DNA of 64,000 nucleotides from an uncultured Candidatus Competibacteraceae bacterium (GCA_964578885.1 CAZOEO010000005.1:91752-155751); one strand, 5' to 3'. Positions 11,988 to 43,937 are shown, counted from the stretch's first letter. Numbers and translations are program-made. Notes: generated by a model from the letters alone, not told the origin.

Positions 11988-12069
11988 TGCGGATGAAGGG
12001 ACTCGAACCCCCACGCCTTTCGGCACCAGATCCTAAGTCTGGCACGGCTACCAATTACGCCACATCCGC
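11988..12069 (-). tRNA. tRNA-Leu (anticodon TAG), long variable arm
   Basis: Reverse complement folds as a cloverleaf: GCGGATG acceptor stem, anticodon loop CTTAGGA, long variable arm, GGTTCGAGTCC T-loop. No encoded CCA. Confidence 0.85.
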
Positions 12070-27940: not shown

Positions 27941-28014
27941 TCCTCCTTAGCTCAGTTGGTTAGAGCATCTGACTGTTAATCAGAGGGTCGCTGGTTCAAG
28001 TCCAGCAGGGGGAG
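27941..28014 (+). tRNA. tRNA-Asn (anticodon GTT)
   Basis: TCCTCCT acceptor stem, D-arm GCTCAGTTGGTTAGAGC, anticodon loop CTGTTAA, T-arm GGTTCAAGTCC. Close to E. coli tRNA-Asn. No encoded CCA. Confidence 0.9.
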
Positions 28015-33697: not shown

Positions 33698-35758
33698 TTA
33701 GTGCATCACTACAAACTTCTGAGTTACTTCTTTTCCACCAGCGGTGAACGTGAAGAAGTAAGTTCCTGAAGCATATTGAGTAGTGTTTACATTCACCTCA
33801 TGGCTTCCGGACTGTTGCATGCCTGGAGCGATGGTTTCCATGATACGACCTTGGATATCACGCACTTCAATGGTTACATTAGAAGCATCATGCAAAGTGT
33901 ATTCAATTTTGGTGAAAGCATCCGCAGGGTTAGGATAATTCTGGCTGAGGAAGAACTGACCATAGTCACCAATCTCAGTAGCTACACCTAAAGGCAGATC
34001 TTTGAATCCAAGACGGATACCAGCCACAGAGTTTCCGGAAATAATGAACCAGTCTCCGGTGTCATCATCATTACCATTAGGAAGGTAGTACAGAGAAATC
34101 TGTCCTTGGTGACGGTCGCCGGAGGTAGCACCTACTACGATTTTAGACGTAGGATCGTTTGGCGCAGTTGGAGGTGAATCCAATTTGATACCACCATAGA
34201 AGAAACCGTTGGTTAAGGTAGTAGGAGCAGTCAACTTCATGCGAAGGAATTTTCCTTGCTCACCTTGGTTCCATGCAGGAATGGTGAATGGGTTACCAAC
34301 AGCAATCGGAGTGAAAGCACCGGTTTGGTTAGAACGGGTAGCGATGAAAGGCTCCAATACAGTACCTGGGGTAGTTACACGTCCATTTCCAGCATCAGCG
34401 CGGAAATATACTTCGATGAAATATACGTCAGCAGGTTCAAACACTTCGAAGCGAGAAACCACTTGGAAAGGCTCAAGATTGATGGAAGAGAAAGCGGAAG
34501 GGCTATTGTTGTGGAACAAGAAATCAATGTTTCCACCAGTAGCCGTGATGCGATCCATGGCATAGATGGTGTCATTGATGGTCCAGTTGTGGGTAAACGA
34601 GTTATCGTTGGGGTTCATGGCATCTGGACCACCTAAACCGAAAGAAATAATTTCAGTGGTGTAGTTGGCTACAGTTGTCATGGGAGTGATAGGGAAATCA
34701 CGACGGATAAAAGTGGTAGCACCTGGGTTTAGGTTGTAGGTAACAGAGTCACCGGCAACCATGGTAGTACCATTCATAATCCGGAATACGGTACGTACTT
34801 GTTGTGCAGAAGAACCGTTGTTGGTTACTTGGGCACCCCAGAAGATAGAGTCACGTGCAGAAATAACATCTACAGGAACCTGATACCATTTTCCGAAAAG
34901 GGTGTCACCGGAGGTGAAAGCCGCTACGTTCATGAATTCGAAGGTGTAGAGAGGATCAGCCTGAGCAATCTCATAAGCCTGTGGCGTTCCAATCACGATG
35001 TCATCAATCATCCAACCATAGTAGCCTCCATCCCAGTTGAAACGGATTTGTACGCTATCAGCACCACCGGCAGCAGCCATAGGAATGAATACGGTTCCGG
35101 TATCTTGGGCATTTACATCTGTGGTCGCCGTCCAAGCATTGATCCATTGACCAGCAGAGCCAATGCGATAATCTACTTTTGGAGATGAGATGAAAGCGCG
35201 AAGCTTATGTTCGAACTTCAAAGTAGGCGCAGCCGAAGAAGACATGTCGATCCAGGGAGACTCCAGGTGAGACACTTGAGGAGAAGGAGCGGGTCCTGTT
35301 CCAAGTGCACCTGCACAGGTAGAACCTTGGTCATCTAGCCAGTTAGAGTCAAAAATCATAAAACCATTGTTGGCTGTTGTACTCACAATGGGTGACCAGT
35401 TTGGAGCTGAGTAGCAAGCACCACGTGATCCAATGGTGTTGTTTGGGTTGGTGCTAGGACCACGATATTCCCAAGCCGCATCAACGTCGTTGGCCAAAGC
35501 ACCTTGCGCGCCAGACGAAGACTGACGGAAAGTATTAGTCCATGCGCCGTTTTCACCAGCCAATCCATTGCCCCATGTTTCGATATAAACTGTGTCAATG
35601 AACGGGGAAGCAGTACCTCCTAAAAGAGGAATTTGATTTTGCTCGGTGCGAACTGCATCATTTGCAACTGCCGAGCGGAGTGCCCGGAATTGTACAGATT
35701 GTGCAGACACCATGCCAACTGTGGCTATGGATAAGCCAAGAGTAACGATGTGTTTCAT
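33698..35758 (-). CDS. T9SS type A sorting (Por_Secre_tail) domain-containing secreted protein
   Basis: N-terminal signal peptide. C-terminal ~80 aa beta-sandwich-like tail (…SGTYFFTFTAGGKEVTQKFVVMH) is typical of T9SS C-terminal domains. Confidence 0.65.
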   Translation of the reverse strand: MKHIVTLGLSIATVGMVSAQSVQFRALRSAVANDAVRTEQNQIPLLGGTASPFIDTVYIETWGNGLAGENGAWTNTFRQSSSGAQGALANDVDAAWEYRGPSTNPNNTIGSRGACYSAPNWSPIVSTTANNGFMIFDSNWLDDQGSTCAGALGTGPAPSPQVSHLESPWIDMSSSAAPTLKFEHKLRAFISSPKVDYRIGSAGQWINAWTATTDVNAQDTGTVFIPMAAAGGADSVQIRFNWDGGYYGWMIDDIVIGTPQAYEIAQADPLYTFEFMNVAAFTSGDTLFGKWYQVPVDVISARDSIFWGAQVTNNGSSAQQVRTVFRIMNGTTMVAGDSVTYNLNPGATTFIRRDFPITPMTTVANYTTEIISFGLGGPDAMNPNDNSFTHNWTINDTIYAMDRITATGGNIDFLFHNNSPSAFSSINLEPFQVVSRFEVFEPADVYFIEVYFRADAGNGRVTTPGTVLEPFIATRSNQTGAFTPIAVGNPFTIPAWNQGEQGKFLRMKLTAPTTLTNGFFYGGIKLDSPPTAPNDPTSKIVVGATSGDRHQGQISLYYLPNGNDDDTGDWFIISGNSVAGIRLGFKDLPLGVATEIGDYGQFFLSQNYPNPADAFTKIEYTLHDASNVTIEVRDIQGRIMETIAPGMQQSGSHEVNVNTTQYASGTYFFTFTAGGKEVTQKFVVMH

Positions 35759-35836: not shown

Positions 35837-36259
35837 CTATATATCCGATTTTTTGGGCTTTGCATCTTCCTTTAATCCAATGATTCCAAGAAGAATAAGC
35901 CCCATTCCTATCAGCGCGTTGAGGTGTGGTGCTTCTCCTTTTCCCAATGATTCTACCAGTGCTGTAAAACCAAGGGCGAGGCCTGTCCAAACTCCAAACG
36001 CCACGCTGGAAGGAATGTGCTTTAATGCTTTATAGAAGAAATAGGCATTTCCAACGCCGAGCAAGACATATGCCAGCAACGAAATAAGAAGCAGTCGGCC
36101 TTCCGCATCCCACAATGCGCCTGTATACAAAAGATCCATATGAAATCCACTCAATCCCTGTATGGCATATAGCCATCCTGTTTCCATTAATGACGCTACC
36201 ACCAGCCAGAGCCAAGCGCTTAAAGATGTTTTTTGAGGGGATTTCATTTGCTGCTCCAT
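35837..36259 (-). CDS. SMR/DMT-superfamily 4-TM small membrane protein (ArnE/ArnF- or EmrE-like), subunit 2
   Basis: Four predicted TM helices with a TM1 Glu (LMETGWLY). Overlaps the upstream SMR-like gene by 16 nt. Confidence 0.55.
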   Translation of the reverse strand: MEQQMKSPQKTSLSAWLWLVVASLMETGWLYAIQGLSGFHMDLLYTGALWDAEGRLLLISLLAYVLLGVGNAYFFYKALKHIPSSVAFGVWTGLALGFTALVESLGKGEAPHLNALIGMGLILLGIIGLKEDAKPKKSDI

Positions 36260-36615
36260 TGTAAAAGCATGGTTCCGACAAGAATAAAACCCAGAAAGAG
36301 CAAGGTACGTAATGCTGGTTTTTTTCGCATACGCAAATGATCGACCACTGCGGCCAATACCATTACCACTCCTGTCCAGCTAGCATATACCAATGCAGCA
36401 GACATGGTTTGCATGGCTTTTCCTAACATGGCCACATTCCCAATACCAAACGCAAGGTAACCCACGGCAGGCCACAAACCCTGCCAACGCATCATCCAGG
36501 ATGCGCGCTTTGAAAAAACCATTTTTAAACGTGGAAAGGAAAAATGCTCTGTCGCACTTAACCAACCCACCTGAAGCACTGCTCCAATAAGTACAAACCA
36601 AATCCAAGCCTGCAT
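36244..36615 (-). CDS. SMR/DMT-superfamily 4-TM small membrane protein, subunit 1
   Basis: 123 aa, four TM helices. Its start codon overlaps the stop of the fatty-acid hydroxylase gene. Confidence 0.5.
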   Translation of the reverse strand: MQAWIWFVLIGAVLQVGWLSATEHFSFPRLKMVFSKRASWMMRWQGLWPAVGYLAFGIGNVAMLGKAMQTMSAALVYASWTGVVMVLAAVVDHLRMRKKPALRTLLFLGFILVGTMLLQWSSK

Positions 36616-37622
36616 TAAGTCCGATCCGCAAGTTCTGGCTTAGGACCAAATTCTTCAGTCACCTGCAGCGGTCCTTTAGGAAAGAAAAAATGCTGCCAGG
36701 AGATTGGCATCCATCGATAGGTCAGATTCAAAAGTTGCACACGTAACAACCATAATTTTCCCAATGGCTGTTCCGGAGATTCAGCGCGGCCTACGTGAAA
36801 ACGAAAGACCGAAAACACATGTTGTGCGAACCATCCTCGGGGAAAACGATACCAAACGCCATAACGTCTCGGAGGTATACCGGGCCTGTAAGCCGTTCCA
36901 AACAAATAATCCCAGATGGAAAACTTGGTGCCAAAATTGGCGTGATAGACTTCGGCATGATCTGCGTGGTGCCATAAATGCAATTCCGGGCCATTGATGA
37001 TATAACCTAATTTTCCCAGATTTACCCGCAGATTTGCGTGAATAAATTGTCCCCACATGGCGTCCAGAAGTGCTTTAATGGGCACCACCACCGCGGCCGT
37101 TTCCAAATCCAGTAAAAAGAAAATGGGGGCAAACTCAATGGTTTGATTAATTACAATTTCCAGCATGTGTGACCTCGACCCGGCCAGCCAATCAACTTGT
37201 TCTACGGAATGATGCGCTTCATGCGTGCGCCACAGCCACTTATTTGCATGCTGCAACCGGTGAAACCAGTAAATATAAAAATCGTGGGTCACCAAAAAGA
37301 ATAAGATAATAGCCCAAACAGGCCAGTGGCTGATATATCCGGATTCAGCCAATCCTAACCCGGTTTTAGCCGGCGCAATCACATAATCGAAAATCAAAAT
37401 TTTTAGAAAAAAACTTTGGATAAAAGTGTACCAAATAAGGTCAATCCAGAATCCTTTCCGAAAAAAGGAAAGCCCTTTCCGGTAAGGGAAAAGGCGTTCC
37501 AAAGTTATCAGAACCACCATGTAACCAAGAAGAATCATGGTACAAAGGGTTTCTACCGACCAGCTTAAAAAAATGCCGAACGGTTCTAGTGCAGGAATAA
37601 GCGATGTTCCGGGTAGGTTCAT
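36615..37622 (-). CDS. fatty acid hydroxylase / sterol desaturase family membrane di-iron enzyme
   Basis: Three His boxes (HRLQH, HEAHHS, HLWHHADH) on a multi-TM scaffold. Start overlaps the NeuB-like stop. Confidence 0.75.
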   Translation of the reverse strand: MNLPGTSLIPALEPFGIFLSWSVETLCTMILLGYMVVLITLERLFPYRKGLSFFRKGFWIDLIWYTFIQSFFLKILIFDYVIAPAKTGLGLAESGYISHWPVWAIILFFLVTHDFYIYWFHRLQHANKWLWRTHEAHHSVEQVDWLAGSRSHMLEIVINQTIEFAPIFFLLDLETAAVVVPIKALLDAMWGQFIHANLRVNLGKLGYIINGPELHLWHHADHAEVYHANFGTKFSIWDYLFGTAYRPGIPPRRYGVWYRFPRGWFAQHVFSVFRFHVGRAESPEQPLGKLWLLRVQLLNLTYRWMPISWQHFFFPKGPLQVTEEFGPKPELADRT

Positions 37623-38506
37623 TCGTCTAAATGTACACGGCGCAGACGTTTACGGGGCTCAACTTCGCTGTCGTACACCCTTTTCACGCCATCGCCCATG
37701 GCTTTTTCAATGTCTCTTATGTTTCTTACAAGGCGGGCCATTCCTTCGGGCTCTACCGAAGCAGCATGGTCTGTTCCCCACATGGCACGGTCCAGCGTAA
37801 AGTGTCTTTCTACGAAAGTAGCGCCCATGGCCACAGCGGCAAGGGTTGTGGCTAAACCGGTTTCATGACCGCTATAACCGATTGGCACACCGGGGAATTG
37901 CTCTTTAAGGGTATGAATCATGCGCAGATTCAGCTCCGCGGGATCACAAGGGTATGCGGAAGTAGAATGAGCAATCATGAGATTTTCCGTACCGACTGCT
38001 TTTACAGCGATTTGAATTTCGTCCTGGGTGCTCATTCCGGTGCTCAGCATAAGCGGACGTCCTGTGGCGCGTACTTTTTTGAGCAGCGGCAAATCGGTCA
38101 AGGAAGCAGACGCCATTTTATACATTACAGGCTTGAATTGCTCCATGAAATCCACACTGGGCTCATCCCAGCAAGATGCGAACCAGTCGATACCTTGCTC
38201 TTTGCAATAAGCATCAATGATGGCGAACTCAGGTGCTTCGAATTCTATGCGTTTTTTGTAGTCGATATAAGTCATTCGGCCCCATGGCGTATCACGTTCT
38301 TTGTCCCATTGGTCTCTGGGAACGCAGATTTCCGGGGTGCGTTTTTGAAATTTCACGGCATCACAACCCGCTTTCACGGCAGCGTCGATGAGTTGTTTTG
38401 CAATGTCCATCTCGCCATTATGGTTGATTCCAATTTCAGCGATAATATAGGTAGGATGACCATCACCGACAAAGCGACCGCCACCGATATCTACTGTTCT
38501 GTTCAT
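37619..38506 (-). CDS. NeuB-family nonulosonic acid (Neu5Ac/KDN-9-P type) synthase, TIM-barrel only (no SAF domain)
   Basis: YIIAEIGINHNG, AVKFQ, MYKMASASLTD, GYSGHETG, ERHFTLDR, GTDHAAS motifs align along the NeuB catalytic domain. The ORF ends before an antifreeze-like SAF domain. Confidence 0.8.
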   Translation of the reverse strand: MNRTVDIGGGRFVGDGHPTYIIAEIGINHNGEMDIAKQLIDAAVKAGCDAVKFQKRTPEICVPRDQWDKERDTPWGRMTYIDYKKRIEFEAPEFAIIDAYCKEQGIDWFASCWDEPSVDFMEQFKPVMYKMASASLTDLPLLKKVRATGRPLMLSTGMSTQDEIQIAVKAVGTENLMIAHSTSAYPCDPAELNLRMIHTLKEQFPGVPIGYSGHETGLATTLAAVAMGATFVERHFTLDRAMWGTDHAASVEPEGMARLVRNIRDIEKAMGDGVKRVYDSEVEPRKRLRRVHLDE

Positions 38507-39045
38507 TTGTTTTCGGAGTTGTTAAGTAAATATTTTGCGTAAATAATCAATTCTGCAAATTCGCGAAACGCGCCATATCCGCCTCGGGCTTCACAAATAT
38601 AATCGGCTTCTGCTTTTGCAAAAGGCATGCCATCTGCTGGAGTAGCAGAGCATCCGACCCATGCCAAAGCTTCCACATCATTGGTATCGTCTCCTATAAA
38701 GGCTATTTCCTCTGGTGAAAAGCCATCTTTTTCAGCGATTTCTTTGAGCCATGTTCTTTTATCTGAGGCTCCCGGATAAAGTCGGGTAATTTTCAGTTTT
38801 TCTGCTCGTTTGGCAACAGATGAAGAATGTTCACCTGTCATGATGGAAGTTTCCACTCCAGCTAAATTACGGAGTCGTTCTACCCCCATCCCATCTCGAA
38901 TAGAAAATCGCTTCATGACTTCACCATCTGGGCCGTAATAAACGCCATTGTCCGTGAGTACACCGTCACAATCTGTCACCAGAAGTCGAATTTTACTCGC
39001 TTTGGCTAGTAATGCGGCAGAAACAGGAAACGTCATGGTTTTCAT
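38503..39045 (-). CDS. KdsC-family HAD phosphatase (sugar-acid phosphate phosphatase)
   Basis: HAD motif I DCDGVLTD and motif IV GDDTNDVEA. Size matches the KdsC/KDN-9-P phosphatase family. ATGA overlap with the NeuB-like start. Confidence 0.75.
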   Translation of the reverse strand: MKTMTFPVSAALLAKASKIRLLVTDCDGVLTDNGVYYGPDGEVMKRFSIRDGMGVERLRNLAGVETSIMTGEHSSSVAKRAEKLKITRLYPGASDKRTWLKEIAEKDGFSPEEIAFIGDDTNDVEALAWVGCSATPADGMPFAKAEADYICEARGGYGAFREFAELIIYAKYLLNNSENK

Positions 39046-39084
39046 TGGAACAAATTTACACTTTAGTTCTATTCATTGGAGATT

Positions 39085-41157
39085 TTACCACAACTTGCAT
39101 TGCTCCATTTCTTTCACAAACAACTGGTGCCCTTCTTTTACCCCAAATACCTTATAGAAGGGAGGAAAATTGCTGAGCACACCAACCACGCGGTATTTCC
39201 TTGGAGCGTGCACATCGGTATAAAGGCGTTGAATGAGACTTTCAGTTCGGTCATGGCCCCGCCATATTTGAGCAAAATTGATAAAAAAGCGTTCATCCGG
39301 ATGTAAACCCTGGATGGGAGAGGAACGTTGTTTTTCTGGCAAGGACTGATAAGCATCCCAAGCGATCCAGAGGCCGCCCAAATCCGCAATATTTTCTCCC
39401 AAAGTGAGTTGTCCGTTAATGCTTAATGTATCTACTGGACAGTACGCATTATAAAAGGAGACAAACCGCCTGGCCAATGACTGAAATTTTTGGGCATCTT
39501 CTTCGGCCCACCAATCTTTCAGGTTGCCCAATGCATCGAACTGGCGTCCTTGATCATCAAAACCATGCGTTAATTCGTGACCAATGACCATTCCTATACC
39601 GCCATAATTTACAGCGGGGTCAGCTTCAGGGTGGAAAAAAGGGGGTTGCAGAATAGCGGCCGGGAAAACGATCTCATTAAAAGCCGGATTGTAATATGCA
39701 TTCACCGTTTGTGGTCCCATGTACCATTCCATTCGATCTACGGGTTGGTTCAGTTTGTCCCACATTCTGCGATTTTCAAATGCCGTAGCTTCTGCAATGT
39801 TGAGTAGATACAAGGCATGTCGAAGTTTTAATCCGTCGTAACTGCGCCATTTTTCAGGATATCCCATTTTTACCTGAATCTTGGCAAGCTTTTCACGGGC
39901 TGCCGTTTTGGTAGAATCGGACATCCATGTGAGTTTGTCGATACGTCGGTCAAAGGCCATTCTGAGATTTTCCACCAAATCCAACACCTTTACTTTGGCA
40001 GTTTCATCAAATACTTTTTTCACATAAGCCTGCCCGACGGCATCTCTGAGCCAAATATCGGCCTGTTCACATACCAATTGCCAACGAGGCTCGGGAGACT
40101 TTTTCCCCATAAGCGTTTGGCCATAGAATTTAAAATGCAAATTGGCCATGTCGCGATGCATGAAAGGCGCACCATAACGCATTTCATGAAACTGAAAATA
40201 TGCGGTCCAATGAGCCTGATCAAACTTGGTCAATGCCTGATCCAAAGCTTTAAAATAATCAGGTTGCCCTACAATAATTTCTGTGGCATCTATCTGCAAT
40301 TGCTCAAAGAAAAGGTGCCAATCGAAACTCGGCATCCAATGCATGAGGTCTTCCAATTGAGTTGGATGATAAGTAGCGTAGGGATCCCGCATGGCTTCCA
40401 GCGTCATGCTGTGACGGGCCAAATGGGTCTCTACGGCCATCACCCGGGCTGCGTTCTTTCTGGCTTCTGTGGAAACCTGACCGCTCAGTTCAAAAAACCG
40501 AGAAATCATTTCCTCATACTTTTGGCGCAGGTTGGTGGAACGCGCATCAGAACGGAAATAATAGTCCCGCTCCGGCAATCCAAGACCATCTTGTCCCAGG
40601 TAAAGGACATTACGGGTATGGTCTTTTAAATCCTGGTCTACATAAATGGCAAAAGGCAAAGGAACGCCGCTCGGAAGGGCTTTGGAAAAATGCAAGGCAC
40701 GTGCCGCCGGATCCTGACCATATGTCCAGCCGGAAGTCAGGCGTTTCAAGGAAGAAAATCCAGCCTTTTCAAGTGCGACCGTGTCCATGGCCACAGACCA
40801 GAAACGACCCATCAGAAGTGTATTGGCATCGCTCTGGTTGCTGGCATTTGAAGCGTCTTCTAATAATTGACGCACCTCGGTCCGGCTTTTTTCCTGCAAT
40901 TCATGAAAGGCGCCCCATGAACTTTTGCTATCGGGAATGGGATGGCCATTGATCCATCGTTGGTTTACGAACTCAAAAAAAGCATCCGCAGGGGCATAGC
41001 TACTATCTAAGTCTTGAACTGAAATCAGATCTACAAAAGGAGTCTTTTCGGACGAACCCATATGTCCGCACCCCCAAGTACCCACACCTAAACTAAACCA
41101 AAGGGCCAAACGCATAATAAAGTTCTTTAGGCAAAGGTAAAGTGAAGCATGCGCCAC
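39085..41157 (-). CDS. M13 family metalloendopeptidase (neprilysin/PepO-like)
   Basis: HEXXH in VIGHELTHGFDDQG, ENIADLGG motif, NAYY motif. The true start may be an internal Met at MRLALWFSL. Confidence 0.85.
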   Translation of the reverse strand: MAHASLYLCLKNFIMRLALWFSLGVGTWGCGHMGSSEKTPFVDLISVQDLDSSYAPADAFFEFVNQRWINGHPIPDSKSSWGAFHELQEKSRTEVRQLLEDASNASNQSDANTLLMGRFWSVAMDTVALEKAGFSSLKRLTSGWTYGQDPAARALHFSKALPSGVPLPFAIYVDQDLKDHTRNVLYLGQDGLGLPERDYYFRSDARSTNLRQKYEEMISRFFELSGQVSTEARKNAARVMAVETHLARHSMTLEAMRDPYATYHPTQLEDLMHWMPSFDWHLFFEQLQIDATEIIVGQPDYFKALDQALTKFDQAHWTAYFQFHEMRYGAPFMHRDMANLHFKFYGQTLMGKKSPEPRWQLVCEQADIWLRDAVGQAYVKKVFDETAKVKVLDLVENLRMAFDRRIDKLTWMSDSTKTAAREKLAKIQVKMGYPEKWRSYDGLKLRHALYLLNIAEATAFENRRMWDKLNQPVDRMEWYMGPQTVNAYYNPAFNEIVFPAAILQPPFFHPEADPAVNYGGIGMVIGHELTHGFDDQGRQFDALGNLKDWWAEEDAQKFQSLARRFVSFYNAYCPVDTLSINGQLTLGENIADLGGLWIAWDAYQSLPEKQRSSPIQGLHPDERFFINFAQIWRGHDRTESLIQRLYTDVHAPRKYRVVGVLSNFPPFYKVFGVKEGHQLFVKEMEQCKLW

Positions 41158-41482: not shown

Positions 41483-42529
41483 ATGAGTTTACGGATTTCG
41501 GAATTGGCCAGGATCTGCGAAATACCCGGCGCACCAGGACACGAACAAGCTGTTACGGCTTTTCTCAAAACACAGCTTTCTCCATATATATCTCACATCC
41601 ACATAGATGGGATGGGAAATCTCACCTGCACCATCCCTGGCAAGTCAGATCAATCTATCATGGTTGCCGCCCATATGGATGAAATTGGCTTTATGGTCAC
41701 ACATATTGAACCGCAAGGAGCATTAAGGATCACGCCCTTAGGTGGTTTCGACCCAAAAACCCTCACAGCTCAGCGTGTTTGGGTGCATGGGCACCAAGAT
41801 GTTCTTGGCGTCATGGGTTCCAAGCCCATCCACCTTATGGATACTGAAGACAGAAATAAAGCACCTAAAATATCCGATTTCTTCATTGATTTAGGTCTTC
41901 CGTATGAAGAAGTCATCCAAATCGTTTCCATAGGCGATGTGGTGACCCGGGAACGCAGCCTGGTACAGATGGGCCAATGCGTCAACGCCAAATCTCTGGA
42001 CAATCGCGTTTCGGTTTTCATTCTCATGGAAACACTTATTGCGCTTTCAAGCCAAAATTTACCATTTACTTTTCACGGCGTATTTACCGTACAGGAAGAA
42101 GTGGGGATTCGTGGGGCACAAGCCGCAGCATTGCGTTTAAATCCTCATTTCGGCCTTGGCTTGGATACCACCATCGCTTATGATGTACCCGGTGCCGCGG
42201 CGTACGAACAAATTACATCACTCGGGAAAGGCGTGGCCATCAAATGGATGGACGCTTCCGCTATTGCACACCCATCCATGGTAAAGTTCCTGAAAAACCG
42301 CGCTATCCAAAACAACATTCCATGGCAACCTGAAATTCTGACTGCTGGTGGAACAGATACGGCGGCCATCCAGCGTTTTAATCCAGGAGGCGCTATTACA
42401 GGTGCATTATCCATTCCCACCAGACACATTCATCAGGTCATAGAAATGTGTCATGTAACGGATATACAAGCGGCTATTGACCTGCTGTCCGATAGCATCT
42501 TACATCTGGATGCTTTCCCTCAAGGCTGA
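41483..42529 (+). CDS. M42 family peptidase (FrvX/glutamyl aminopeptidase-like)
   Basis: AAHMDEIGFMV metal-binding motif and overall M42 layout. Confidence 0.8.
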   Translation: MSLRISELARICEIPGAPGHEQAVTAFLKTQLSPYISHIHIDGMGNLTCTIPGKSDQSIMVAAHMDEIGFMVTHIEPQGALRITPLGGFDPKTLTAQRVWVHGHQDVLGVMGSKPIHLMDTEDRNKAPKISDFFIDLGLPYEEVIQIVSIGDVVTRERSLVQMGQCVNAKSLDNRVSVFILMETLIALSSQNLPFTFHGVFTVQEEVGIRGAQAAALRLNPHFGLGLDTTIAYDVPGAAAYEQITSLGKGVAIKWMDASAIAHPSMVKFLKNRAIQNNIPWQPEILTAGGTDTAAIQRFNPGGAITGALSIPTRHIHQVIEMCHVTDIQAAIDLLSDSILHLDAFPQG

Positions 42530-43937
42530 AGAATGGAAAACCGCAAAGCCCTTTTGGTGTATTGCGGCGGGTTGGACCATACTTTCGTGGATGCGTTGGC
42601 TTCTGACCGGATCAATCAAAGTAGACGAACATTATCCACAAGGCTGGGCTTCTGCCATCCTTCTCAGTTTGGCCGTTTTCCTGCTTATCTACAGCATTTT
42701 CAGGTTGTACGAAAACTTGAGAAAACCGGCGAAAATGTCGCCCCGAGCTTGGAAAATCACAATTCTCGGATCCATCTGGCTTCTTTGGCCCATGCTACCA
42801 GCGTTTTCCAATGATTTGTTCAGTTTGTTGTATCACGCAGAAATCAAAGCACATGGAATGCCTGTGTATGTACAACCCCTTCCTGAATTTACGGGTACCT
42901 GGCTAAATTTTGTAGGCGAACGATGGCGGTCTACTCCGCTGGTTTACGGTCCCGTAGCTTTGCTTCCCGGGCTACCTCTCTCCTTCTTTTCATTGCATCC
43001 CCTGGGTGCCATTTTGCTCACCAAGGCCCTATTCCTGCTTCCATGTACTTTGCTGGTGCTGAAGCTTCCAAATCGTTTCTGGGAAATACAAGCGGTTCCT
43101 TTGCTTTGGCTTTCACCCCTGGTTTCATTATCCGGATTTGGACAGGTACACACAGATCTTTGGATGGTCATGGCGGGCATCGGTGCGTTTGTATGGGCAA
43201 GAACGCATCCCGTTTGGGCAGGCTTGCTGATGGGAACAGCCCTGTCCGTGAAACTTTCTTCTATTTTATTGGGTGCGGGACTCTTGGTCCTTTGGCGCAC
43301 CATGACCCTGAAGCAAATCATTTTCAATATTCTGGCCACACTGGTCAGTCTTTTCGGTTGGTACGCCCTTCTGGGCGAGGACATTTCTGTGTTGCTGACT
43401 CCACTGAAAACCTTATCGAATATGGCGCCAACCGGAAGTTTTGTAGACACGTTGAGTGAGATTTTCCGATTTTTCACTGCAGGTGGGAACATTCGACCGC
43501 CGGAGCCCGATCCCATCCGCGCGAGGGCTTTAGATTTCGCAGAAAAAGGCCCCATTTGGTTGTGGATGGTACCCCTGTTTGGAGCAGCCGGAATATCATT
43601 GGGCGTATTTTCCATTTGGCGGTTATGGAAAGAAGATAAAGCCGCTACCACTAGCTGGAATTGGGCGCTGGGAGCCACCGTGGCCATTCTTTGCCTTGCT
43701 ACGCCCAAGTTTCATCCGTGGTACTTGCTGTTGCTGTTGCCTTTTCTCCATTTTTCCCCGTCACGAACCTGGCAATACTGGTTTATCCTCGCCGGCAGCG
43801 TCGCAAGTCTGCAAGATTTCAGTCAACTGTTGCCGCATCATCATTTCGCCTTTTCCATTTGGGTGGCCAGCACCGCCATCTTCACCTTACTGGCTTTTTT
43901 GTGGAAAGGCAAGATCCGATATGGGGAGGGAAGGTAG
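42477..43937 (+). CDS. polytopic membrane protein (possible GT-C-like glycosyltransferase / DUF2029-like)
   Basis: At least 10 TM helices. No confident family assignment. The true start is probably downstream of the overlap with the M42 gene. Confidence 0.35.
   Translation: MTCCPIASYIWMLSLKAEEWKTAKPFWCIAAGWTILSWMRWLLTGSIKVDEHYPQGWASAILLSLAVFLLIYSIFRLYENLRKPAKMSPRAWKITILGSIWLLWPMLPAFSNDLFSLLYHAEIKAHGMPVYVQPLPEFTGTWLNFVGERWRSTPLVYGPVALLPGLPLSFFSLHPLGAILLTKALFLLPCTLLVLKLPNRFWEIQAVPLLWLSPLVSLSGFGQVHTDLWMVMAGIGAFVWARTHPVWAGLLMGTALSVKLSSILLGAGLLVLWRTMTLKQIIFNILATLVSLFGWYALLGEDISVLLTPLKTLSNMAPTGSFVDTLSEIFRFFTAGGNIRPPEPDPIRARALDFAEKGPIWLWMVPLFGAAGISLGVFSIWRLWKEDKAATTSWNWALGATVAILCLATPKFHPWYLLLLLPFLHFSPSRTWQYWFILAGSVASLQDFSQLLPHHHFAFSIWVASTAIFTLLAFLWKGKIRYGEGR

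Follow-up and report, generated by a model that had tools for sequence, protein, structure and literature searches.

A widely conserved Bacteroidota operon couples a SAF-less NeuB-like synthase to a membrane hydroxylase and SMR proteins

The window analyzed here, a single stretch of DNA of 64 kb, carries five minus-strand genes that form a real, widely conserved and uncharacterized operon of Bacteroidota (Table 1). We count its gene content, conservation and coupling, together with the subtype and topology of its SMR proteins, as established. On this basis we infer, including the chemical steps, the substrate and the acceptor, a variant ulosonic-acid pathway. Its final steps, at the inner membrane, would be a hydroxylation that uses O2 and an SMR translocation coupled to H+. 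We assign this reading a probability of roughly 40%.

A first-pass annotation had described five genes chained by start/stop overlaps. All five ORFs are present within 35837-39045, and profile scores uphold the domain that had been named for each product (PF03102, TIGR01670, PF04116, and PF00893 twice). The stop codon of the KdsC-like gene overlaps the NeuB start as ATGA (38503-38506), NeuB and the hydroxylase gene overlap in the same manner (37619-37622), and the hydroxylase gene shares base 36615 with the first SMR gene in the sequence TAATG. The 16-nt overlap proposed for the two SMR genes (36244-36259) is the one link that needs revision. A second in-frame ATG at 36247 creates a further ATGA overlap with the preceding stop codon, and public gene calls start the last gene there, which gives the 136-aa product. 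Thus, this overlap is probably 4 nt rather than 16 nt. The -7 promoter consensus of Bacteroidota is TAnnTTTG, and a candidate element of this type precedes the KdsC ATG by 5 nt, within the 39-nt gap that follows an M13 peptidase gene.

Table 1. Features of the operon in the window, in order of transcription
Feature	Coordinates	Strand	Remarks
Candidate -7 promoter element TAAATTTG	39051..39058	-	Weak match to TAnnTTTG, read from sequence
KdsC/YrbI-family HAD phosphatase	38503..39045	-	180 aa; leads the operon; TIGR01670 and HAD motifs
SAF-less NeuB-family PEP-condensing ulosonate synthase	37619..38506	-	295 aa; PF03102
Integral-membrane di-iron enzyme, FA_hydroxylase/sterol desaturase family	36615..37622	-	335 aa; PF04116
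SMR subunit 1	36244..36615	-	123 aa; PF00893, 22.4 bits; Gln at the central-Glu position
SMR subunit 2	35837..36247	-	136 aa from ATG 36247; 140 aa from ATG 36259; PF00893, 27.8 bits

Synteny was assessed in 82 loci from related Bacteroidota, with denominators that vary by gene. The hydroxylase gene is immediately preceded by NeuB in 76 of 78 loci and immediately followed by an SMR gene in 76 of 80. From the hydroxylase stop to the SMR start the median distance is -4 nt, with values of ≤0 in 52 of 77 loci; the NeuB-hydroxylase gap is wider (median 68 nt). The KdsC-like gene is found in 45 of 75 loci. Synteny spans Hymenobacter, Spirosoma, Fibrisoma, Mucilaginibacter, Saprospiraceae, Lewinellaceae, Chitinophagales, and Flavobacteriales metagenome-assembled genomes, and matches occur in at least 577 species-level genomes. 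The synthase is 74-85% identical to its Hymenobacter and Spirosoma orthologues, a level of identity across orders that indicates strong selection. Gene linkage is far beyond chance and recurs over families and orders of Bacteroidota. The co-conservation on which the earlier proposal depended is therefore borne out, and a full-text literature search, which also turned up no activity assay of any member, produced no description of the combination, in agreement with its presentation as a novel unit.

The operon might nonetheless unite two independent modules, a soluble sugar-acid pathway and a membrane-lipid hydroxylase with a cation exporter, which would be adjacent for co-regulation and would have no common substrate. 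The hydroxylase-SMR pair occurs without a nearby NeuB in two loci (L022 and L023), two others (L014 and L060) tolerate mobile insertions that separate the hydroxylase gene from the SMR gene, and the wider gap in front of the hydroxylase gene is likewise consistent with separate modules. However, adjacency persists in 76 of 78 loci over orders with gene order kept, ATGA couples NeuB to the hydroxylase gene in the window, and the NeuB proteins encoded beside the hydroxylase form a dedicated clade distinct from the canonical NeuB of the same genomes. We regard this explanation as improbable.

The phosphatase scores 135.6 bits against the KdsC/YrbI subfamily model TIGR01670 (cut-off 106.95), and HAD motifs I and IV are intact (DCDGVLTD and GDDTND). 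It falls below the equivalog cut-offs, which would assign a substrate, both for KdsC, the KDO-8-P phosphatase (149 versus 208 bits), and for KDN-9-P phosphatase (136.9 versus 180 bits). Its sequence matches in the PDB are E. coli KdsC (124 bits) and two B. thetaiotaomicron enzymes, KDN9P phosphatase 3e81 (108 bits) and KDO8P phosphatase 4hgn (80 bits).

The synthase matches PF03102 at 270.8 bits (gathering score 22.1) as its sole Pfam domain, and no SAF domain was found in a Pfam search at E≤0.1. The motifs EIGINHNG, KFQ, GYSGHE, ERHFT and DH, which serve as the criterion for metal and PEP binding, are present. Scores remain under the NeuB/NnaB equivalog TIGR03569 (267.7 versus 399.65 bits) and the PseI equivalog TIGR03586 (207.1 versus 340.25 bits), and the best solved relatives are SpsE (1vli) and a 290-aa SAF-less protein (6ncs). 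Members of the synthase clade score at least 430 bits, whereas the canonical, SAF-containing NeuB from the NulO locus of one relative (L010) scores 154 bits; that organism holds a separate canonical locus with DegT, CTP_transf_3, NeuB with SAF, and Wzx. Judged by these scores, the synthase belongs to a separate SAF-less paralogue clade that is dedicated to the hydroxylase locus and is not a standard NeuB. The grouping with bona fide NeuB enzymes that would have counted against the original proposal was not observed.

A NeuB-family synthase and a KdsC-type HAD phosphatase are likewise used in phosphate-route sialic acid or KDN synthesis, as in animal NANS/NANP, B. thetaiotaomicron BT1714/BT1713, and Leptospira, where the two are known as a fusion (PMC3438082). 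In the window the two genes are translationally coupled. The window's enzymes differ in that the phosphatase scores under both the KDN-9-P phosphatase and the KdsC equivalogs, the SAF-less synthase reaches no curated equivalog, and the pair is joined to membrane hydroxylase and SMR genes outside a capsule or O-antigen locus.

The hydroxylase scores 97.4 bits against the FA_hydroxylase family PF04116, which together with its His boxes, membrane helices and Scs7p-like fold places it in this superfamily, and the His boxes (H113/H121/H125, H134/H137/H138, H195, and H215/H218/H219) are invariant in 28 homologues. Fold and His-box di-iron site are shared with Scs7p/FA2H and with the ornithine-lipid hydroxylase OlsE, which hydroxylates a lipid head group. 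OlsE is the sole curated family match, but the score of 92.2 bits against an equivalog cut-off of 475 indicates that the enzyme is no OlsE orthologue. It belongs instead to a discrete clade with an SMR-gene neighbor and, nearly always, a NeuB neighbor. Fusions to FA_desaturase occur in more distant members of the family, which fits lipid substrates.

In 46 of the 59 loci with full upstream sequence, the five-gene set closes a 10-gene cluster, and cultured Hymenobacter sedentarius and Mucilaginibacter paludis carry this cluster. The additional genes encode a NeuC-like 2-epimerase, a cytidylyltransferase of the CTP_transf_3 family, an SDR, an aminotransferase of class III, and a transketolase that is split. 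Equivalents of NeuC, NeuB and NeuA occur together in 46 of 59 related loci; the window has the synthase alone. A tblastn search of the 64-kb window detected no cytidylyltransferase, second NeuB, transketolase, class-III aminotransferase, or cluster-type SDR, and six accessory genes, the cytidylyltransferase among them, are missing locally from this lineage. The first-pass annotation was thus correct that the window has no cytidylyltransferase, but this is not a trait of the system, because CTP_transf_3 and NeuC-like genes are found in most relatives' clusters. The missing cytidylyltransferase is a local arrangement of the window's lineage.

The presence of the accessory genes in most relatives suggests that the usual product is probably an amino-modified, CMP-activated ulosonic acid. 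NeuC-, NeuB- and NeuA-like genes accompanied by an aminotransferase and a dehydrogenase also characterize the canonical NeuC-NeuB-NeuA, Leg and Pse pathways. However, the relatives' aminotransferase is class III (GSA-aminomutase-like) rather than DegT, their dehydrogenase is a classical SDR rather than a 4,6-dehydratase, and their cluster has a split transketolase and no acetyltransferase. In the Shewanella Kdo8N pathway, KdsC is followed by the oxidase KdnB, the aminotransferase KdnA, and KdsB. Compared by pathway logic only, the 10-gene relatives may proceed similarly: the phosphatase would free a hydroxyl, the dehydrogenase would oxidize it, the aminotransferase would aminate, and the cytidylyltransferase would activate. 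Unlike Shewanella, these relatives use SDR and class-III aminotransferase families, and the window is without the accessory genes.

SMR proteins were recognized by a length of ~100-140 aa, four TM helices, a TM3 Trp motif, and antiparallel dimer topology, the last judged from a K/R bias that is near 0 in singletons and of opposite signs in pairs. Subunit 2 exceeds the PF00893 cut-off of 23.7 bits and subunit 1 is slightly under it. The SMR profile matches E. coli Gdx by hhalign at 99.0% (E 4e-18, 31% identity over 104 columns) and EmrE at 97.4%, and the profile of the first-of-pair group alone matches Gdx at 98.2%. Together with the K/R bias, these matches agree with the earlier assignment of both small membrane proteins to the SMR fold.

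A published K/R pattern distinguishes SMR heterodimers from dual-topology homodimers (PMC9574504). The biases found here agree with it: -6.5 for first-of-pair proteins, +3.5 for second-of-pair proteins, and -0.6 for singletons. In the window, the K+R counts of subunit 1 are 2 for the N-terminal side and 10 for the opposite side, which predicts an N-out topology, and subunit 2 has the opposite bias (8 and 2). The column of the central Glu (E13/E14) is Gln in 12/12 first-of-pair proteins and Glu in all 12 second-of-pair proteins and all 66 singletons. The window pair, one Glu and one Gln subunit, is thus biased in the manner of an antiparallel heterodimer.

The proposed likeness to ArnE and ArnF, by contrast, does not survive comparison. 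ArnE reaches 74% and ArnF 18% by hhalign, and no ArnE/F family is among the NCBIfam matches of the SMR proteins. Lipid-flippase SMRs often have Asn in place of the central Glu (PMC9574504), whereas the centers here are Glu or Gln. Among related loci, the cluster conserves neither a glycosyltransferase nor a polyprenyl-phosphate transferase or GT-C enzyme. We therefore rejected the lipid-flippase subtype for these proteins. The corresponding pathway would load the ulosonic acid on undecaprenyl phosphate, use the SMR pair as a passive glycolipid flippase, and pass the sugar on to LPS or a different acceptor in the periplasm, with the hydroxylase modifying the lipid. As with the undecaprenyl-phosphate-Ara4N flippase, whose small 4-TM SMR-superfamily subunits are sometimes paired, an SMR gene closes a sugar-modification operon, and the relatives' aminotransferase could make the sugar cationic like Ara4N. 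A GT87/MptA-like GT-C gene does lie in the window 3.4 kb off (42477-43937), but related loci have no equivalent of it close to the operon, and no ArnC-like GT2 or ArnT-like GT-C partner is conserved in or beside the cluster. Such a pathway is distinctly unlikely.

Gdx (SugE) guanidinium exporters, the best profile match, are defined by E13, W16, S42, Y59 and W62, a GXG fulcrum, and frequent control by guanidine riboswitches. Equivalents of W16 and W62 are invariant in the SMR family described here, the central Glu is shared, the Y59 position is Y or F, and dual-topology singletons and oppositely biased pairs both occur. However, Asn takes the place of Ser42 in 90/90 proteins, a degraded sequence stands at the GXG fulcrum, 16 residues are inserted in loop 1, and each pair has one Gln subunit. 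The genes also reside within a biosynthetic operon, and no guanidine riboswitch was found in the 64-kb window. Because of the invariant Asn and the degraded GXG, the SMR substrate cannot be read from Gdx.

Conservation of E13, W16 and W62 is nevertheless compatible with a cleavage reaction in which the hydroxylase oxidizes a carbon beside nitrogen in an amphipathic substrate, the Gdx-like SMR exports the resulting small cation (guanidinium, amidinium, or a small amine), and an aldehyde is left for NeuB-type condensation. NeuB-type enzymes require an aldehyde acceptor, which such a product would suit, and the hydroxylase and SMR genes form the tightest unit, one that can stand alone. The few sources of free guanidine known so far include O2-dependent hydroxylases, and most of its sources have yet to be identified (PMC12623156). 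Against this scheme, the cluster has no amidinotransferase or other guanidino-forming gene, and the KdsC-like, NeuC-like and CTP_transf_3 genes indicate an ordinary sugar route. We know of no FA_hydroxylase-family enzyme that releases a small cation by such an oxidation. The Asn at the Ser42 position and the lack of a guanidine riboswitch in the window also speak against the scheme, which we consider very unlikely.

A soluble route resembling the animal sialic acid pathway would have the hydroxylase modify the sugar in free or CMP-activated form, in the way of CMP-Neu5Ac hydroxylase, and the SMR dimer, a distant SLC35/DMT relative, export the sugar for use beyond the cytoplasm. The structural relationship of SMR proteins to SLC35 has been described (PMC9574504). 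Functional counterparts of GNE-epimerase, NANS, NANP and CMAS are collected in the relatives' single cluster, which is without a glycosyltransferase, and the neighbors most often found downstream are type IX secretion cargo genes (10/67). To our knowledge, all characterized FA_hydroxylase-family enzymes act on lipids, and the FA_desaturase fusions of distant relatives also speak against a sugar substrate. CMP-sugars, moreover, are anionic and bulky and match poorly the cation-type site that the SMR proteins retain, and the window's lineage has no local cytidylyltransferase. We regard a soluble route as highly improbable.

In the favored ulosonic-acid pathway, family membership suggests that the SAF-less NeuB-like enzyme would condense PEP with a sugar that is probably phosphorylated, and that the KdsC-family phosphatase would then strip phosphate from the product. 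In most relatives the cluster would also supply an NDP-sugar 2-epimerase/hydrolase resembling NeuC, a cytidylyltransferase resembling NeuA, a split ThDP enzyme resembling transketolase, an SDR, and a class-III aminotransferase. The di-iron hydroxylase and the coupled SMR dimer may function as a single unit whose substrate is a positively charged intermediate associated with the membrane, most likely a lipid-anchored or amphipathic molecule bearing the sugar. The hydroxylase would oxidize an unactivated C-H of the lipid or head group, and H+ antiport by the SMR would bring the molecule to the other side of the membrane, any hydrophobic tail being accommodated in the SMR's lateral portal.

Several observations fit this pathway poorly. 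No sugar-to-lipid transferase is conserved in the cluster, which leaves the route of the sugar onto a lipid unexplained, and the six accessory genes are absent from the locus and 64-kb window of the window's lineage. If the NeuC-like enzyme frees the sugar, a phosphatase would be needless, and the KdsC-like gene is present in just 45 of 75 loci. Gdx-type SMRs are described as excluding guanidinyl substrates with polar substituents (PMC9574504), so that a large sugar head group would be a poor fit; the Asn at the Ser42 position and the degraded GXG further prevent reasoning from Gdx to the substrate.

A bolder proposal is that the hydroxylase-SMR pair constitutes a new membrane machine, in which a Gdx-derived, proton-coupled SMR would handle an amphipathic or cationic sialic-acid-like conjugate tailored by the di-iron oxygenase. 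We consider this doubtful. If true, it would mean a previously unseen envelope glycoconjugate in aerobic Bacteroidota and a fifth functional SMR subtype. Such a conjugate could be, for instance, an amino-ulosonate carrier or a bacterial lipid resembling gangliosides.

The five minus-strand genes form a tightly packed operon (table). The first-pass annotation had described five chained reading frames, and all of them are found where it placed them. Start and stop codons overlap as ATGA at both 38503-38506 and 37619-37622, and the next two genes meet in a TAATG in which base 36615 is common to both. An overlap also exists at the last junction, proposed at 36244-36259. However, a second ATG at 36247, which public gene calls use as the start of a 136-aa protein, gives an ATGA overlap with the preceding stop codon, so that the true overlap is probably one of 4 nt. 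Each proposed domain assignment is backed by Pfam and NCBIfam profile searches. No operon protein reaches the cut-off of a curated equivalog model: scores are 149 bits for KdsC (cut-off 208), 136.9 for KDN-9-P phosphatase (180), 267.7 for NeuB/NnaB (399.65), 207.1 for PseI (340.25) and 92 for OlsE (475). The catalytic motifs of the phosphatase and synthase are intact in sequence, and 10 hydroxylase histidines do not vary across 28 homologues.

Features of the window and of related Bacteroidota loci (L-numbers; locus coordinates)
Feature	Source	Coordinates	Strand	Remarks
KdsC/YrbI-type HAD phosphatase	window	38503-39045	-	KdsC/YrbI subfamily model, 135.6 bits (cut-off 106.95)
NeuB-like synthase	window	37619-38506	-	NeuB domain alone, 270.8 bits; SAF absent
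FA_hydroxylase-family membrane enzyme	window	36615-37622	-	FA_hydroxylase, 97.4 bits
SMR subunit 1	window	36244-36615	-	SMR, 22.4 bits (cut-off 23.7; weak match)
SMR subunit 2	window	35837-36259	-	SMR, 27.8 bits (cut-off 23.7; weak match)
686-aa protein gene	window	33698-35758	-	type IX secretion C-terminal sorting domain; 78-nt gap 3' of operon
Terminator-like site	window	33588-33574		first such site, past 686-aa gene
M13 metallopeptidase gene	window	39085-41157	-	ends 39 nt short of operon
GT87/MptA-like GT-C membrane glycosyltransferase	window	42477-43937	+	3.4 kb from operon, past M13 and M42 peptidase genes
tRNA gene	window	27941-28014	+
tRNA gene	window	11988-12069	-
Canonical nonulosonic acid locus	L010	29-4133		~4 kb upstream of operon
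Three-gene insertion	L060	8964-12233		Fibrisoma montanum
Defence-like insertion	L014	1359-4559		Saprospiraceae MAG
PF04199 'cyclase' arrangement	L002/L038	8295-9047		some Flavobacteriales MAGs
Second copy of NeuC-like gene 1	L090	10001-11050		Mucilaginibacter paludis

Homology suggests that the first two genes encode a KdsC-type phosphatase and a paralogue of ulosonate synthases, a pair that resembles the animal phosphate route, KDN synthesis in Bacteroides and the Leptospira fusion. A close two-SMR relative, L010, carries a canonical nonulosonic acid locus near its operon, comprising DegT aminotransferase, CTP_transf_3, SAF-containing NeuB and Wzx-like flippase genes, with an M13 peptidase gene in between. 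Compared with the window synthase, this canonical NeuB reaches just 154 bits, whereas orthologues of the operon type reach 430 bits or more and share 74-85% identity across orders. Thus, the SAF-less synthase is a dedicated paralogue, separate from standard NeuB as had been supposed, and it is under strong purifying selection.

Hydroxylase homologues are plentiful in Bacteroidota at 53-78% identity, and at least 577 loci encoding them turned up when one genome per species was scanned. The best 80 of these were analysed by calling ORFs in all fetched loci and searching them with the window proteins. They hold the nearest relatives of the window hydroxylase rather than an unbiased sample, and come from Hymenobacter, Spirosoma, Fibrisoma, Mucilaginibacter, Saprospiraceae, Lewinellaceae, Chitinophagales, Flammeovirgaceae and uncultured Flavobacteriales. 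Synteny bears out the expected co-conservation: a NeuB-like gene lies immediately 5' of the hydroxylase gene in 76 of 78 loci and an SMR gene immediately 3' in 76 of 80, and a KdsC-like gene was found in 45 of 75. The hydroxylase-to-SMR gap has a median of -4 nt (zero or less in 52/77 loci) and the NeuB-to-hydroxylase gap a median of 68 nt, both lower bounds because the longest possible ORFs were called. Two loci (L022 and L023) carry the hydroxylase and SMR genes alone. The short gap and this stand-alone occurrence identify the membrane pair as the tightest unit, conserved and translationally coupled, with the synthase as a near-constant companion. The stand-alone pairs could also be accommodated if the operon held independent modules kept together for regulation; given how regularly the synthase gene adjoins the pair, we consider this unlikely.

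A few loci depart from this order. In F. montanum, three same-strand genes lie between the hydroxylase and SMR genes, one for a glutamine-synthetase-like protein that resembles gamma-glutamylputrescine synthetase, one for a 347-aa protein lacking annotation and one for a HAD-IIA hydrolase. This insertion, seen at no other fetched locus, may hint at an amine intermediate. At L014, an AAA_21/RloB-type defence-like gene set occupies the same position, so the pair tolerates mobile insertions. At L002 and L038 the order is NeuB, hydroxylase, SMR and an arylformamidase-like PF04199 gene that overlaps the SMR stop codon; the phosphatase is absent.

Upstream sequence is complete for 59 loci; in 46 of them, the operon genes are the tail of a ten-gene, one-strand cluster. 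Its order is a 350-aa protein, a CTP_transf_3 cytidylyltransferase, the transketolase N- and C-halves, a class-III aminotransferase, an SDR, the KdsC-like phosphatase (not always there), NeuB, the hydroxylase and SMR. Most relatives add NeuC-like, NeuA-like, aminotransferase, SDR and ThDP enzymes. This form parallels canonical NeuC/NeuB/NeuA logic, but its tailoring enzymes are non-orthologous. The aminotransferase is similar to enzymes of the GSA-aminomutase type and to C-6' aminotransferases, and the cytidylyltransferase is nearest to PDB entry 6oew, with KdsB only a distant relative. In two complete genomes the cluster is isolated rather than part of a polysaccharide locus: those of Hymenobacter sedentarius DG5B (CP013909.1, about 4.183-4.194 Mb) and M. 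paludis DSM 18603 (CM001403.1, about 7.5636-7.5724 Mb). The compact lineage (L004, L006-L013, L019, L021), to which the window belongs, has the phosphatase, synthase, hydroxylase and two SMR genes with no accessory genes nearby, and tblastn with the six accessory proteins gave zero matches in the 64-kb window. Examples of MAGs with this two-SMR, five-gene form are JAGYKD010000001.1 and JGI Ga0196970_1000001. The earlier statement that a cytidylyltransferase is missing thus holds for the window and fails for the system, because most relatives encode one.

Gene 1 gave weak signals of a TagF-like or sialyl-type transferase (Glyphos_transf in 10/18 members; 8qoy, E 7e-5) and, given their weakness, was dropped as a candidate for the missing transferase. 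With gene 1 not read in this way, the ten-gene cluster holds no evident glycosyltransferase. A second copy of the NeuC-like gene 1 stands by itself in M. paludis, well away from the cluster and surrounded by glycoside hydrolase and alginate lyase genes.

Among 90 aligned cluster SMR proteins, the position of EmrE E14 and Gdx E13 is Glu in all 66 singletons (lone SMR genes) and all 12 second subunits of pairs, and Gln in all 12 first subunits. Lys+Arg bias is -6.5 (-8 to -4) in first subunits, +3.5 (2 to 6) in second subunits and -0.6 in singletons; the window counts are 2/10 for subunit 1 and 8/2 for subunit 2. Opposite biases denote antiparallel heterodimers and near-zero values dual-topology homodimers (PMC9574504), a published signature that the cluster proteins match.

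The SMR family profile was compared by hhalign with E. coli MG1655 references, giving 99.0% for Gdx (E 4e-18), 97.4% for EmrE, 96.5% for MdtJ, 95.4% for MdtI, 74% for ArnE and 18% for ArnF. Membership of the SMR family is thereby upheld, whereas the proposed likeness to ArnE/ArnF is not: lipid-flippase SMRs, the sole subtype moving non-cationic substrates, often replace the central Glu with Asn (PMC9574504), and here the position is Glu or Gln. An ArnE/F-style polyprenyl carrier route is accordingly improbable. The Gdx hallmark W16 and binding-site W62 are invariant, the Gdx Ser42 position is Asn in 90/90 proteins, the GXG fulcrum is degraded and loop 1 is longer by a 16-residue insertion. These features suggest a distinct subfamily derived from Gdx, whose members probably still couple to protons and bind a cationic group. 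No guanidine riboswitch or other Rfam element was found near the operon; the only Rfam matches in the window are two tRNA genes.

The hydroxylase has a confident AF2 model (pLDDT 87), for which Foldseek found no significant match in the PDB; a profile search of PDB sequences also found none. Exhaustive HMMER searching delimits a discrete orthologous group, with a handful of 50%-identity representatives above 250 bits, and below it a large family at 30-40% identity whose more distant representatives have uninformative names. Fusions to FA_desaturase, GH3, rhodanese or TPM domains occur in some distant relatives; at only ~30% identity, these proteins are weak guides to its role. The enzyme is an orphan clade of the FA_hydroxylase family, and family and fusions favour a lipid or amphipathic substrate. 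A CrtZ-like carotenoid role was rejected, as crt genes and a curated match are both absent.

From homology and synteny we propose, with a probability of about 0.4, that the product of the soluble enzymes is a sialic-acid-like sugar acid, amino-modified and CMP-activated where accessory genes are present. The hydroxylase-SMR pair would hydroxylate a cationic, probably amphipathic intermediate that carries or receives this sugar, and would move it across the membrane. The main weaknesses of this proposal are the missing transferase and a Gdx-type pocket that fits a large polar head group poorly. We regard as quite improbable an oxidative cleavage that would supply NeuB with an aldehyde and release a small cation to be exported. 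Equally doubtful is a soluble-sugar route analogous to animal CMAH and the CMP-sialic acid transporter, for which the cytidylyltransferase of the ten-gene form might speak and the FA_hydroxylase affiliation would not.

The gene combination (NeuB-like, hydroxylase, SMR and cluster partners) was not found described in full-text literature searches, in agreement with the first-pass annotation. We rate it as a ulosonic-acid pathway whose membrane module is unprecedented. In this module a membrane di-iron oxygenase is tightly joined to an antiparallel SMR dimer that is Gdx-like and bears Glu, and the chance that it is categorically new is modest. The cluster occurs in hundreds of Bacteroidota species, including the cultivable soil and freshwater genera Hymenobacter, Spirosoma and Mucilaginibacter; its product is probably a sialic-acid-like sugar or envelope glycoconjugate that has so far gone unrecognised. 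For an SMR subfamily that falls outside the four functional subtypes known, the cluster supplies a natural substrate context defined by an operon, and an O2-dependent membrane hydroxylase tied to a Gdx-like exporter bears on the role of non-riboswitch Gdx relatives.

No terminator-like site separates the operon from the same-strand 686-aa gene. Por_Secre_tail proteins are the commonest downstream neighbours in related loci (10/67); TonB-dependent receptors rank second (7-8/67). Related loci do not keep the window GT-C gene near the operon. The first operon ATG is preceded, at a distance of 5 nt, by a TAAATTTG motif. The M13 gene, syntenic with the operon in the closest relatives (L006-L010) only, may be co-transcribed with it.
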